From positions 1-64,000 of the forward strand of contig JBBSWJ010000005.1 of NCBI GenBank assembly GCA_038046345.1: DNA of 64,000 nucleotides, written 5' to 3'. A program made the position numbers and the translations under genes. Shown one piece after another: positions 3,987-44,111 of the stretch (within the stretch, counting starts at the first letter, position 1; the number at the start of each line of letters is the position of its first letter). Source of the stretch: Nanobdellota archaeon (GTDB lineage: Archaea; Nanobdellota; Nanobdellia; SCGC-AAA011-G17; JACPNG01). The notes under the pieces are model-generated. The model was given only the letters and a program-made list of their open reading frames with translations. It did not search any database and was not told where the DNA came from.

Positions 3987-4319
3987 ATGTCAATAAAAAA
4001 ATTATTACCGTCAATGAAGGAAAGACAGCGATATATTGCTTATGCTGTACATAGCACAAAACAGTTTAATAGGCTAGAAGTAAGAAGGGCTATAGAAACA
4101 GAGTTATTAAGATTCTTAGGTGAAAATGGATATTCTCAGGCCGGTATACAATTATTAACTGATGGTGTTATAAGGGTTGATCATAAGTCTATACCAGAAA
4201 CAATTACTGGGCTTAGTATGATAAACCATATAAATGGTGTTCCAGCAGCAATAAGAACAGTAACTACTTCAGGAATACTTAAAAAAGCTAAAATAGCATT
4301 TAAAAGGAGGGATAATTAA
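3987..4319 (+). CDS. rnp2: RNase P protein Pop5/Rpp14
   Basis: LLPSMKERQRYIAY...TTSGILKKAK; upstream of psmA. Confidence 0.9.
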   Translation: MSIKKLLPSMKERQRYIAYAVHSTKQFNRLEVRRAIETELLRFLGENGYSQAGIQLLTDGVIRVDHKSIPETITGLSMINHINGVPAAIRTVTTSGILKKAKIAFKRRDN

Positions 4320-6429: not shown

Positions 6430-7130
6430 CTTATACAAAAAGAAATGATGGAAGAAGATTTGATGAGCTAAGACCAATGGAAGCAAAAGTTGGTGTTATA
6501 AAACGAGCTGACGGATCAGCAATGTTTAAGATTGGTAGTACGATTGCGTATGCTTCAGTTTATGGACCAAGGGCATTACATCCAACATTTATGAGAAATC
6601 CAGAACATGGGTTATTAAGGTGTAATTATAACATGATGGCCTTTTCAGGTTCTGGAGATCGAGTAAGGCCTGGGCCTAGCAGGCGTAGTAAAGAGATAAG
6701 TCAGGTAACTAAGAATGCTTTAGAACCAGTTTTGGATCTTACAAACTATCCAAACATGGTAGTTGATATATTTGTGGAATTATTACAAACCGATGCCGGT
6801 ACGAGGTGTGCTGGTATTTGTGCTGCTGCTATGGCATTAGCAGATGCAGGGTTTAGTATGAAGGATATGGTAAGTGCAGTATCTGTTGGATTAGTTGGGG
6901 ACAAAGTTGTTGTTGATTTAGACAAAGAAGAAGAAGATTATGAAGATGGTTCAGTTGATATACCTGTAGCAATGACTCATAGGCACAAGAAGATTACTCT
7001 GTTGCAGTTAGATGGGATAATACCGGAGAAGCAATTACAGGAAGCTTTAAAAAAAGCTGAAGAAGCATGTGAAAGCATACATAAAGTACAGAGAAAAGCA
7101 ATGTTGGAAGGTTACAAACATGGATTATAA
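6426..7130 (+). CDS. rrp41: exosome catalytic subunit Rrp41
   Basis: RNDGRRFDELRP; SRRSKEIS; DAGTRCAGI (RNase PH fold). Confidence 0.95.
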   Translation: MTYTKRNDGRRFDELRPMEAKVGVIKRADGSAMFKIGSTIAYASVYGPRALHPTFMRNPEHGLLRCNYNMMAFSGSGDRVRPGPSRRSKEISQVTKNALEPVLDLTNYPNMVVDIFVELLQTDAGTRCAGICAAAMALADAGFSMKDMVSAVSVGLVGDKVVVDLDKEEEDYEDGSVDIPVAMTHRHKKITLLQLDGIIPEKQLQEALKKAEEACESIHKVQRKAMLEGYKHGL

Positions 7131-39067: not shown

Positions 39068-39091
39068 TGATATCATGTATATTGTGTGTAA
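39068..39091 (-). repeat. 23S processing stem, 3' arm
   Basis: Complementary to 42098-42125 (24 bp including one G-U pair, with a 4-nt bulge). Confidence 0.75.
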
Positions 39092-39435
39092 AATGGTCTC
39101 GAGCTATTGGAAAATGCAGGCTTAATTTCTCGTTGCCTTGAAACTTACACCCCACTCCCATCAAACAGATCTTCTATCTGTGCTCTCCTTCTCTTTTCAA
39201 GGTGGGTTTCGTCCTTAGATGCTTTCAGGACTTATCCCACAAGGCGTAGCTGCCCGGCCTGCCTTGTCAGACAACCGGTACACCAGAGGCCTCGAATCCT
39301 CGTTCCTCTCGTACTAAAGGATCCTTCCCCTCAGAAGATAAACAAATCCAGTAGATATCATACAAACTGTCTCACAACGTTCTTAACCCAGCTCACGATC
39401 CCTTTTAATAAGTGAACACCTTCACCCTTGGCCGC

Positions 39436-39488
39436 AAGCAGTACGTGGAAACTGTTAATTTCGACATACCATGCTCTTTTCCGCGCAT
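39436..39488 (-). other. 53-nt BHB-like intron in 23S (about E. coli 2534/2535, H91)
   Basis: Extra sequence versus the conserved core; central helix GCAG/CUGC, AAA bulge, internal stem. Confidence 0.8.
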
Positions 39489-39501
39489 TTCTGCACGACC
39501 A

Positions 39502-39533
39502 CTCTACGATACAAGAATCTAATCTTTGTATCC
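39502..39533 (-). other. 32-nt BHB intron in 23S (about 2521/2522, H90-91)
   Basis: Central helix CUAU/GUAG; bulges CC|G and AG|U; stem GAUACAA/UUGUAUC. Confidence 0.88.
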
Positions 39534-39577
39534 GGATAGGAAGAGCCGACATCGAGGTAGCAAGCAGCGCCGTCGAT

Positions 39578-39603
39578 AAACTCGGAATCAATTTATTGAT
39601 CCT
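39578..39603 (-). other. 26-nt BHB intron in 23S (about 2477/2478, H89)
   Basis: Central helix GCUC/GAGU; bulges AA|A and UU|A; stem GGAUCAAU/AUUGAUUCC. Confidence 0.88.
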
Positions 39604-42097
39604 TTGAGCTCTTAGGCGCTACAACTCAATTATGCCCGAGATAGCTTTTCTGTCATGTCTAGCCCCCATCAATGAGGACATAGAAGTTCGCTAGGCCATA
39701 CTTTCGTACCTGAATCCCGTATTGTTTGGAATCCAGTCAAGCCAGCTTTTGCCCTTGCACTCCACAGAGAATTTCTAAATCTCTTGAGCTGACCTTTGGG
39801 CCCTACTGATATCCTTTCAGCAGGGTCCCGCCCCAGGCAAACTATCCGCCAGTAGTTGTCTTTCATTACTGAAGTAAGTAATATAGAATACAGAGGGTAG
39901 TATCTCACTTTTGCCTAAACGTACACTGGCGTGCACGCATCAACAGCTCCTACCTATTCTTAACACCATACTCCATACCACAGCTACAAGCTATAGTAAA
40001 GTTCTACGGGGTCTTCGCTTCCCACTGGAATTCTCTGGCCTTTGCACCAGAATAGTGTGTTCGGGAGGTTCTACGTAAAGACAGTGGATACCTCGTTACG
40101 CCATTCATGCAAGTCGTCAATCAAACGACAAGGTATTACGCTACCTTAAGAGAATTATAGTTATTCCCGCCGTTTACACGCTCTTAGCCCCCTTGAAAAG
40201 GAGTTTAAAGTACATGCACTGGGCAGACGTCACCTCCTATACAAACCATTACTGGCTAGCAGGAAGTTTCGTTTTTGTTAAACAGTCGGGCATCCTTAGT
40301 TATTGAATCCTGTACTCGCAACTAAAAGCTACAAGCGCAGGAACCCCTTATGCCGAAGTCACAGGGCCAATATTGCCGATTTCCTTTACGTAAATTACCC
40401 CTCTCATACCTTAGGCTACTAACCCAGGGCACCTGTGCTGGTTCTGGATACGGTTATTTATGATCCTTCCATATTGTTTTTTCACGGGCTCAAGGCATCT
40501 ACCCAATCAACATACATTGACTATTCTCAGCTTTTCTCAGGTTCTCATCATGACAATTCTCCCCTGACATATGCTAATTAACAACCATGTCTATGATTGT
40601 GGGTATAGCCCAAAGCAGCAACAATAAGGCTTTCGTCGCCGAATGTACATAAATAGTACTGGAATATTAACCAGTTTGCCTCTTCCCGCACGTCAATTTA
40701 TGAGTGCAGTTAGGTCCGACTAACTCTTAGCTGAACTGCAGTGCTAAGAAAACCTTGCCCTTTCGGTATTAGAGAGTCTCACTCTATATAGGTCCTACTA
40801 CCACCGGGATTCTTATTCGTACACGGTCCATTTACTTTCACAAGTATACTTCCATCCATGCACGACACCTATCTACCACCTTGCTTTACAGCAAGTCTGA
40901 AGTATCGGTCGTCAGTTTAGCCCCGTTAATTTTCAGGGCATAATACCTTGACGGGTGAGCTATTACGCTTTCTTTAGAGGATGGCTGCTTCTAAGCCAAC
41001 CTCCCCGCTGTCTCTGGTATTACACACCATTCACCCTTTCACACTTAACTGACAGTTAGGGACCTTAACTTCAGGCTGGGATGTTCCCCTTTTGGGACAC
41101 ACGCTTACCGCGCGCCCCTGCTTCCCGCCTTCTACGACGCATTGACATTTGGAGTTGAACAAGAGTGAGAGGAATTTCTTCCCTTAACATTCTAATCCGT
41201 AGCTCTACAACCAATGCTATCTCGAGCGAGACTATTCTGCGGCATATTTCGATAGGAACAGGCTATTAGCAAACTCGATTGGCTTTTCACCCCTAATCCC
41301 AAATCATAAGAGCACATGCACGTAGCACCTCTTCAGGCCTCCACCTCGTATCACCAAGGCTTCACCTTGCTCAGGATTAGATCGTCTGCTTTCCGGTCAG
41401 ACCCCCATGACTTAAGGCGCTTTCACACCTCGCTCCTCGCAAGCTGCGAGCATTTGCTTTCGCTCAGCATTCGTACTAAAAGTACTTACGCTCGCCATGA
41501 AGATCAACTCCCCGGCCCGTTATTCAAAACGTACGGTGCAACTCATGCTGCACCATTCTATAACCGTAAGGTTTCAGGAACTTTTCACACCCTATCAGAG
41601 GTACTTTTCAATGTTCCATCACTGTACTATTTGCTATCGGACTTAAAACATATTTAGCCTTAGAAGTTGATGCCTCCTAAATTCCTGCTCAATATCCAAT
41701 GAACAGTACTATGGATACTTGTAAATCTTTCACGATTATCCTACGGGGCTATCACCCTGTGTCGCATACCATTCCAGATAACTTTAGATAAACATGTTAA
41801 GATGAAAAACAAGTCCAAACACCACATGTTGCTTCTTTTTCAAGAAGTAATTCGGTTTAGGCTATACGGATTTCGCTCGCTGTTACTCACCGCATCTCAA
41901 TTGATTTCTTTTCCTGCGGGTACTAAGACGCTTCAGTTCCCCGCGTTATACATCCTCTCGGATTTAATAGGAAGTCCTATTCGGGAATCATTGGTTCGTA
42001 GGCTGCATGCGCCTCGCCAATGCATTTCGTAGCTTGCCACGCCCTTCATCTTTGTTTTTAAGCCGAATCATCCACCTTACGGCGTAATGACCTATAA

Positions 42098-42125
42098 TTA
42101 CACACAATACCTATACACGATATCA
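42098..42125 (-). repeat. 23S processing stem, 5' arm
   Basis: Inverted repeat of 39068-39091. Confidence 0.75.
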
Positions 42126-42223: not shown

Positions 42224-42331
42224 TGGACCCGTCGGGAAAATCGACGATCCAAGATGTCTAATGCAAATCGTTTTCGAACCCGAGGCCCCTACCTTGCAAG
42301 GGTAATGCTCTACCAGCTGAGCTACGGGCCC
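42224..42331 (-). tRNA. tRNA-Ala(UGC) with 35-nt T-loop intron; CCA not encoded
   Basis: GGGCCCG/CGGGTCC acceptor stem; anticodon loop CTTGCAA; T-stem TCGGG/CCCGA; located in the 16S-23S spacer. Confidence 0.93.
42238..42272 (-). other. 35-nt non-canonical tRNA intron at position 59/60
   Basis: Removal restores T-loop UUCGAAU; stem ACGAUUU/GGAUCGU; 3-nt bulges. Confidence 0.85.
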
Positions 42332-43124
42332 AAACAATTGGATTGACTGTACGAGATTAATTTCAGTGATTAGAATAGTAAAAAAAATAGGAGGTGATCC
42401 ACCTGCAGGTTCCCCTACAGGTACCTTGTGACAACTTACCCCACCTTACTGAATCTAGGTTCGAATACACCATAAAGGTATATGCTCACCTAAATCCTGC
42501 TCGGTTGGATTGATGGGCGGTGTGTGCAAGGCACGTTGACGTATTCACCGGACCCTGATGAGATCCGATTACTAGGAATTCTGGCTTCATGAGGGTGAAT
42601 TGCAACCCTCAATCCGAACTGAGATAGGGTTTAGAGGATTGACTTCTCCTTTCGGAGTTGTAGCCCATTGTCCCTACCATTATAACGCGCGTGTAGCCCA
42701 GAAGATTCGAGCCATACTGACCTGTCATTGCCTACACCTTCCTCCCACTTACGCGGGCAGTCTCTATAGTGTGCACAATCATCCCGGAGGACTTGTTAGC
42801 AACTGTAGATGTAGATCTTGTTCGTTAACTGACTTAACAGTACATTTTACAACACGAACTTACGACGGCCATGCAACATCTCTCGGCTTGTTAGGTACGC
42901 CCTTCAGACGGACCTTCATCCTGCCATCGCCTCTGGTGAGGTTCTCCGCGTGGAATTGAATTAAACCGCACGTTCCACTCCTTGTAGCGCGCCCCCGCCA
43001 ATTCTTTTAAGTTTCAGTCTTGCGACCGTACTACCCAGGCGGCGGATTTAACACCTTCGCTACAGCACTGCACGATCACTTAGAACATGCAATACTTAAT
43101 CCGCAGAGTTTACGGCTAGGACTA

Positions 43125-43155
43125 TTCCCGGTGATATATTATTTATCACATCACT
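43125..43155 (-). other. 31-nt BHB-like intron in 16S (about 800/801)
   Basis: Central helix CCCG/CGGG; bulges AG|A and AA|U; stem GUGAUGU/AUAUCAC. Confidence 0.85.
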
Positions 43156-43162
43156 CTCGGGT

Positions 43163-43194
43163 ATTTAGCAAATATTAGATAACTAAATATTTGT
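43163..43194 (-). other. 32-nt BHB intron in 16S (about 793/794, 790 loop)
   Basis: Central helix UUAG/CUAA; bulges AU|A and AU|A; 8-bp stem CAAAUAUU/AAUAUUUG. Confidence 0.88.
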
Positions 43195-43447
43195 ATCTAA
43201 TCCGGTTTGCTCCCCTAGCTTTCATTCCTCACCGTCAGATCCGTTCTAGACACGTGCCTTCGCCATTGGTCGTCTTCCAAGGATTATCACATTTAACCGC
43301 TCCCCAAGGAATACGCATGTCTTCTCCCGGTCTCTAACTACAGAGTGACCCTTGCACGCTGTCATATTAATGATGACAATTTCACAAAGGACTATTGTAG
43401 TCGGCTACGAATACTTTAGGCCCAATAATCGTGATCGCCACTTGTGG

Positions 43448-43486
<39 letters not shown>

Positions 43487-44111
43487 CCACTTATTCGCCA
43501 AGCTATTTACACTTGGCAAAAGCCTACCCGGAGGTAAGCACTTAGGTTTCCCTTGTCACGCTTTCGCGCATTGCAAAGAATCCTTGCCTGCTGCACTCCT
43601 TAGAGCTAGGGCCCTTATCTCAGTGCCCTTCTCGGGGCTAAGACTCTCATCTCCCCTACTGATCTATGCCTTGGTGGGCCATTACCTCACCAACAAGCTA
43701 ATCAGCCGCAGTCCTATCCTAAGGCGTTTCCTTTCATGAAAGACACATTCCAGTTATCTTTCAATATCCAGGTTTACTCTCAATTTCTCGAGACTATCCT
43801 GAACCTTAGGGCAAGTTAACTACGTGTTACTGAGCCTTTTGCCGGTGCTTCCGAAGAAGCCCCTTGACTTGCATGGCTTACTGAAACCTAATAGCAGCGA
43901 TCTCCCGCAAGATCAACGGGAATTATTTTGGTCGCATAAAATTGGAAATTTTTGTAATACTTTACTACTCATAACCATTGCTGCTTTATCTCGTACATCA
44001 TACTTAATACTTCTGATTAAGTATTCACGTATTATATCACTAAAGTGATATTTTAAGAAGATTAAAAACTATGCTCAATCTTCATTAAGTGAAACAAGTG
44101 TTGGCATCTAG

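Follow-up and report, generated by a model that had tools for sequence, protein, structure and literature searches.

Archaeal introns are removed at BHB motifs of a set geometry, in which a helix is followed by a four-nucleotide strand of a central helix, a three-nucleotide bulge that is cut after its second base, and a further helix. The closest described counterparts of the locus reported here are the hairpin BHB introns of fewer than 50 nt in the 16S rRNA of Thermoproteales, Desulfurococcales and Aigarchaeota (Jay & Inskeep 2015, PMC4496867), where 13 intron loci are listed for the gene (374, 548, 722, 781, 803, 901, 908, 919, 978, 1093, 1205, 1213 and 1391), one of which, locus 803, interrupts Arc806R. 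Some of these introns form close pairs: Pog.S1205 and Pog.S1213 of Pyrobaculum oguniense lie 8 nt apart, and loci 901 and 908 are separated by 7 nt. In such Thermoproteales pairs, a LAGLIDADG homing endonuclease of one partner co-converts the hairpin partner (PMC4496867).

The two inserts that we describe, of 32 and 31 nt, interrupt the 16S rRNA gene of a Woesearchaeales genome. Both are shorter than 50 nt, consist of one hairpin in which the BHB is retained, and have neither coding capacity nor a homing endonuclease, which places them in the hairpin mini-intron class. As in the introns of Jay and Inskeep, an ORF-less hairpin with a BHB at its junctions sits within the most conserved parts of 16S rRNA and breaks 'universal' primers; unlike those introns, the present pair belongs to a mesophile-type DPANN host, and its sites, 793/794 and 800/801 in E. 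coli numbering, fall outside the 13 loci. The Thermoproteales pairs likewise place two BHB introns around a micro-exon of 7-8 nt, but here both partners are hairpin-only with no homing endonuclease, and therefore the co-conversion route of spread is unavailable in the host gene as it stands. The arrangement is less novel than first thought, given that hairpin mini-introns and pairs 7-8 nt apart are already in PMC4496867. The host pair is a known kind of archaeal intron and brings no new mechanism; what is new is the lineage and the two unlisted sites. No description of BHB introns at 793/794 or 800/801 was found in the literature searched, of which subscription journals were covered in part, so that this absence is not proof.

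Two inserts in the 790 loop

The minus strand of the window, by which we mean the whole stretch of 64,000 nucleotides that was analysed, encodes an archaeal rRNA operon. An Rfam scan of the whole window places the 16S gene at 43923..42389, followed by a spacer tRNA and the 23S gene at 42099..39087. The 16S gene (SSU_rRNA_archaea, 1342.5 bits, model positions 1-1478) is 1535 nt long, or 1472 nt minus both inserts, and gave a single match in a search of its own genome (G000; 821 kb in 35 contigs, 97% complete). By its sequence affinities the host is a tiny groundwater-type Woesearchaeota of the order Woesearchaeales; its DPANN affiliation, part of the original prediction, is borne out by a genome of the same family (G009) that is sequence-identical in the h24 region to a Ca. 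Woesearchaeota MAG (L041).

Read in RNA sense from the minus strand, the gene runs from CCGGAUUAGAU through the first insert (intron 1, 43194..43163), a 7-nt micro-exon ACCCGAG (43162..43156) and the second insert (intron 2, 43155..43125) to UAGUCCUAGCC, a readout that reproduces exactly the coordinates and lengths first proposed. The exon sequence directly 5' of intron 1 is ...GGAUUAGAU, with UUAG (43197..43200; E. coli 788-791) in the 790 loop. The micro-exon corresponds to E. coli 794-800, a stretch that reads GGATTAGATACCCGAGTAGTCC in uninterrupted relatives, and the 3' exon resumes at 801 with UAGUCC... (UAGUCCUAGCCGUAAAC, 43105..43124). Our ruler for these sites is the span of primer 806R, which we take to be E. 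coli 787-806. Alignment alone leaves intron 1 ambiguous across five positions, because ATAC repeats at both ends, and places intron 2 unambiguously; the BHB motif settles the position of intron 1.

Intron 1 has the core UUAG-AU/A + CAAAUAUU...AAUAUUUG + CUAA-AU/A and intron 2 the core CCCG-AG/A + GUGAUGUG...UAUAUCAC + CGGG-AA/U (slash, cut), each a 3-4-3 arrangement with a Watson-Crick central helix of 4 bp, two 3-nt bulges and an inner helix of 8 bp. In BHB1, both bulges read AUA (5', A43196 U43195 / A43194; 3', A43164 U43163 / A43162), CUAA of the intron (43168..43165) pairs with the exon UUAG, and the inner helix joins 43193..43186 to 43176..43169 around a UUAU-containing loop. In BHB2, the bulges read AGA (A43157 G43156 / A43155) and AAU (A43126 A43125 / U43124), the inner helix joins 43154..43147 to 43138..43131, and CGGG of the intron (43130..43127) pairs with CCCG of the micro-exon (43161..43158). 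This CCCG provides the 5' strand of the BHB2 central helix and, in the mature rRNA, the 3' strand of the h24 stem.

A strict scan of the 5-kb operon, demanding four Watson-Crick pairs, two 3-nt bulges and an inner helix of 8 bp or more, returned exactly two matches, introns 1 and 2, and so upholds the proposal that each insert forms a BHB through UUAG/CUAA and CCCG/CGGG, respectively. In dinucleotide shuffles, strict matches arose at a rate of about 1.15 in 5 kb at any position, which corresponds to about 2e-6 for a given site and length, and among 3000 shuffles of the local 161-nt sequence, 0 had two strict matches. With the inner helix relaxed to at least 4 bp, the 5 kb yielded 166 matches; the loose motif alone is no evidence, and it is the strict motif together with its registration on the junctions that carries the argument. 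Both cores have the canonical form, whereas the helices outside them are weak. Beyond the core of BHB1, A787 and C795 stand unpaired as a 1x1 mismatch before three pairs of the native h24 stem (CGG:CCG), which is available only while the BHB2 central helix is unformed, and BHB2 lacks an outer helix in the precursor. The weak outer helices count against reading the inserts as BHB introns.

Nevertheless, we put at roughly 85% the probability that the inserts are two independent ORF-less BHB mini-introns, of the short hairpin class, in the h24/790 loop of the single 16S rRNA gene. From the motifs, their junction registration, the enzyme genes and the distribution in relatives we infer the splicing, its order and the fate of the introns. 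Self-splicing introns of group I or II were rejected; 31-32 nt is far below the size they need, and the Rfam scan of the whole window matched SSU, LSU and tRNA alone, with no group I or group II intron.

Cuts after the second bulge base would yield the product GGAUUAGAUACCCGAGUAGUCC; these cuts restore the sequence of intron-free homologues and, for intron 2, no other cut position does so. G005, G012 and G014 all carry the spliced 22-mer uninterrupted, as do 41 of the 92 listed matches from the order. G005 is the closest relative with a 16S gene, a member of the same family at 85-89% identity, and reads GCGAACCGGATTAGATACCCGAGTAGTCCTAGC without a break. Across the 240 genomes of the order, the uninterrupted 22-mer is found in 91 other genomes, with the exact ...ACCCGAG... 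in 41 of the matches listed; the host's own genome has no uninterrupted h24 22-mer anywhere. This identity with intron-free relatives is what confirms the expectation that splicing would restore h24. Since the relatives carry ACCCGAG uninterrupted, the C783/A799 juxtaposition in the spliced product is the normal state of the lineage.

The same relatives decide against a different parsing of the region, in which an insert of about 62 nt is accompanied by one of 2 nt, with GGAUUAGAUA and CCGGGaaUAGUCC on either side of the 62 nt; ACCCGAG would then be intronic and CCGGG the true exon, and the mature rRNA would read ...GAUACCCGGGAAUAGUCC... The Rfam alignment (cmscan) picks one 62-nt insert plus 'aa', and CCGGG is closer than CCCGAG to the archaeal consensus. 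Such a parsing would, however, leave two extra A's in a conserved strand, has no BHB at its borders, and predicts an exon unlike that of the relatives in the family and order, which read ACCCGAG or ACCCAAG and not ACCCGGG. We find it scarcely credible and, on the relatives' sequences, rejected the single-insert alignment in favor of the micro-exon. An intron segment resembles the exon because the h24 stem CCGG:CCGG is self-complementary, so that a segment pairing with CCCG is necessarily exon-like.

Recurrence of the insertion sites

When 185,579 species, each represented by one genome, were screened for 20-80 additional bases separating GGGGAGCNAA from TAGTCCNNGCNGTAAAC, 28 loci emerged. In 23 other genomes (G029 included), an insert of 23-77 nt sits exactly between GGAUUAGAU and ACCC, and in 22 of these 23 the four bases preceding the last two intron bases (CUAA, CUAG or CUGA) pair with UUAG. 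The inner helices are unrelated in sequence and always paired, which amounts to covariation. By their labels, the carriers belong to Aenigmatarchaeota, Woesearchaeota, Nanoarchaeota/Nanobdellati, Parvarchaeota, Hermodarchaeum, Borrarchaeum and Nitrososphaerota, and span DPANN, Asgard and Nitrososphaerota. Within the order of the host, the site is uninterrupted in 91 genomes and carries a short insert in three and a longer one in eight, such that about 11 of some 100 genomes with this part of the 16S gene assembled are interrupted. Judged by these comparisons, 793/794 is a recurrent site of putative introns, a hotspot. The intron of the host shares its cut site and the UUAG central helix with the other archaeal 793/794 introns, but a second intron at 800/801 accompanies none of these, and three are instead paired with one at 781/782.

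It had been proposed to look for both sites in DPANN 16S genes. The search succeeded for 793/794, in the 23 archaeal genomes described, and found no counterpart for 800/801, which is absent from the 793/794 carriers, the genomes of the order and the JGI metagenome contigs scanned; the metagenome scan with ACCCNNG...GGGNN/TAGTCC gave 0 matches. A looser metagenome scan gave 11 matches, all set aside: ten are ordinary 16S with a chance downstream TAGTCC, and one is a known Desulfurococcaceae intron. The latter (L051, L072) cuts at 801/802, one base from the intron 2 site, with a CCGG:CCGG central helix, and is probably the '803' locus of Jay and Inskeep. The 800/801 site appears unique to the host, and intron 2, for which no homologue was found, has no comparative support of its own.

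The distribution of 793/794 inserts bears on whether the two inserts might simply be kept as small expansion segments of h24 in mature 16S rRNA. DPANN and CPR rRNAs are known to be unusual, and BHB1 is a thermodynamically minor conformer, as described below, both of which would suit retention. Yet both inserts have exact 3-4-3 BHB motifs in base-exact registration with the exon junctions, and 22 of the 23 other 793/794 inserts keep the motif while their interiors differ, a pattern that is sensible only if the motif is used; EndA and RtcB are, moreover, encoded in the genome. The inserts also lie inside the 790 loop (G791, A794, C795). This loop is conserved universally and serves functions at both the subunit interface and the P site, and the retention of 63 inserted nucleotides is for this reason unlikely. 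All told, we regard retention as very improbable.

The longer 793/794 inserts in Woesearchaeales (L082-L089; G051, G058, G083, G107, G110, G113, G122 and G160) include several that start with a shared ACGAGAAAUUUUCU-like motif, and there are hints of a related intron family that may have spread across families of the order. Twin introns at 781/782 and 793/794 occur in DPANN 16S genes labeled as Aenigmatarchaeota and another archaeon (L042:1673-1795; L049, minus strand, 4150-4270; L058, minus strand, 6941-7047), with a 781/782 core GAGC-GA/A ... GCUC or GCUU and a 12-nt micro-exon (e.g. ACGGGAUUAGAU) in the same helix. An Aenigmatarchaeota 16S gene (L058:111-2550) extends over 2440 nt but reaches no more than 384 bits with the archaeal SSU model, which suggests many further insertions. 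In a bacterial MAG of the Acidimicrobiales, the 16S gene (L035:5952-7516) is longer by about 40 bases within GGAU...UAGAUACCC, and two group I introns lie in the 23S gene or next to it (L035:621-3428). Two candidates were discarded: an order-level match in G181 is DNA of protein-coding appearance with no rRNA similarity, and a supposed bacterial BHB intron in a 'Babeliaceae bacterium' MAG (L059; CAYRPI010000130.1, 2 kb) lies in a gene that matches SSU_rRNA_archaea at 770 bits. This archaeal 16S carries a 49-nt 793/794 intron, and the contig is most likely mis-binned.

The operon of the host contains further putative mini-introns of like build, in the 23S and tRNA-Ala genes, and these favor the BHB-intron reading. 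A second twin arrangement is seen in 23S domain V (minus strand, 39436-39534), where an insert of 32 nt (39533..39502; BHB CUAU-CC/G ... GUAG-AG/U, 7-bp inner helix) and one of 53 nt (39488..39436; central helix GCAG:CUGC) flank the 13-nt micro-exon UGGUCGUGCAGAA (39501..39489). Both 23S inserts are absent in G005, G012 and G014, and G029 has inserts at both sites. In the 16S-23S spacer, the tRNA-Ala(UGC) gene (about 42224-42331, minus strand) has a T-loop insert of some 33-35 nt; ARAGORN makes no call there and Rfam aligns only 57 nt. Its candidate BHB is UCGA-AA/A ... UCGA-UU/U, from which strictly symmetric cuts give no 7-nt T-loop.

An assembly of metagenome type in 35 contigs invites the suspicion of misassembly, misbinning or a decaying pseudogene. 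We hold this to be highly improbable, as the gene is full-length (1342 bits) and the sole 16S in a genome that is 97% complete, and two BHB motifs in precise registration are not what an artefact produces. The 23S and tRNA-Ala genes of the same genome contain introns of like build, and a relative (G029) has three of the same sites, both of which argue in the same direction.

Splicing enzymes and predicted order of removal

The genome encodes both enzymes of the archaeal system. EndA (G000:C32; L001:1246-1788, outside the window) is a protein of 180 aa with both Pfam domains (PF01974, E 3.5e-31; PF02778, E 3.1e-15), and RtcB is found at G000:C24 (E 1.9e-170). EndA is of the alpha type, collinear with the alpha4 enzyme of M. 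jannaschii (1A79, E 1e-37); it has no extra loop and lacks the 6-residue insert seen between the catalytic Tyr and His of N. equitans alpha. A search of the genome's own proteins (E up to 10, both Pfam domains) found no second EndA subunit or paralogue. Intron-rich archaea have been tied to EndA with extra loops (Kaneta et al. 2018, PMC5829648), and many or relaxed introns to (alpha-beta)2, epsilon2 or extra-loop alpha4 enzymes (PMC5829648; Fujishima et al. 2011, PMC3239211). The host resembles those systems of non-canonical tRNA introns in its EndA and RtcB and as a member of DPANN, rich in disrupted RNA genes, but differs in having only the plain 180-aa alpha protein. A plain EndA with no second subunit counts against the BHB-intron reading, and such an alpha4-like enzyme in a genome rich in BHB introns, non-canonical positions included, is a mild puzzle, softened by the canonical 3-4-3 cores of the 16S introns.

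If the inserts are BHB introns, the 3' end of each would pair in the pre-rRNA with the four exon bases just upstream of its own 5' splice site, and the CUAA:UUAG and CGGG:CCCG pairings would each build a 3-4-3 BHB atop the 8-bp intron hairpin. EndA would cut after the second base of each bulge, and RtcB would join the exons into GGAUUAGAUACCCGAGUAGUCC; ligation and any circularization of the introns would follow by analogy with other archaea. The two cores adjoin and share no base, A43162 being the last bulge base of BHB1 and C43161 the first base of the BHB2 central helix. In a 126-nt model of the precursor, BHB2 is dominant, being present in the minimum-energy fold and in the ensemble with P=0.57, and BHB1 is rare (P=0.002), which again counts against the BHB-intron reading; the two are compatible, at a ddG of 3.9 kcal/mol. 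The only competition is between the BHB1 outer helix (native h24 stem, CGG:CCG) and the BHB2 central helix. Taking intron 2 out of the model raises the probability of BHB1 to 0.08 and provides BHB1 with the native h24 stem for an outer helix; if intron 1 goes first, the probability of BHB2 drops to 0.02.

The introns are probably removed stepwise, since simultaneous cutting at all four sites would leave the 7-nt micro-exon secured by no more than about 3 bp. The modeled folding mildly favors a sequence in which intron 2 probably leaves before intron 1, after which the native h24 stem could act as the outer helix of BHB1. The suggestion that splicing may need to be ordered is thus plausible; any necessity is weakly supported, as the two cores can form together without shared bases and order is not forced.

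It is tempting to go further, to splicing that is obligatorily sequential and proceeds by strand swap, with a two-step timer and 793/794 as a pan-archaeal intron hotspot. As a joint proposition we consider this doubtful. Were the strand swap true, CGGG of intron 2 would be a decoy for the 5' strand of h24, holding the micro-exon in BHB2, and the micro-exon would pair with the real h24 5' strand only once intron 2 had gone. The pairing of h24 would then complete a canonical hBHBh' for intron 1, which a plain alpha4 EndA could cut. The timer would delay formation of the 790 loop, with its contacts to the subunit bridge, IF3 and the P site, to a late stage of small-subunit assembly, and a pan-archaeal hotspot would bias surveys based on 806R or 785F.

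Primer sites and wider consequences

Even when 3 mismatches are allowed, the window contains no match to the 806R target, ATTAGAWACCCBDGTAGTCC, and none is present in the genome; the predicted spliced 20-mer fits the primer with 0 mismatches. The primer-site search hence agrees with the original prediction that the site is broken in DNA and perfect after splicing. The 515F site is intact (43456..43474, minus strand, 0 mismatches), and a V4 amplicon would consequently fail on the reverse-primer side only. Neither 515F/806R nor other primers aimed at 785-806 can amplify the organism from DNA. Half of the primer problem in the host is due to the 793/794 site, and inserts there constitute a systematic blind spot of amplicon surveys that takes in about one-tenth of the Woesearchaeales with an assembled 16S gene and several other archaeal phyla. 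They can also be a trap for 16S aligners, as the Rfam model mis-draws the present case.

For the biology of RNA processing in these archaea, a 7-nt exon between two introns that EndA would cut offers a test of how EndA and RtcB keep tiny exons in place. Whether a genome rich in introns can manage with a plain alpha4-like EndA is a second question that the present case puts to the test.
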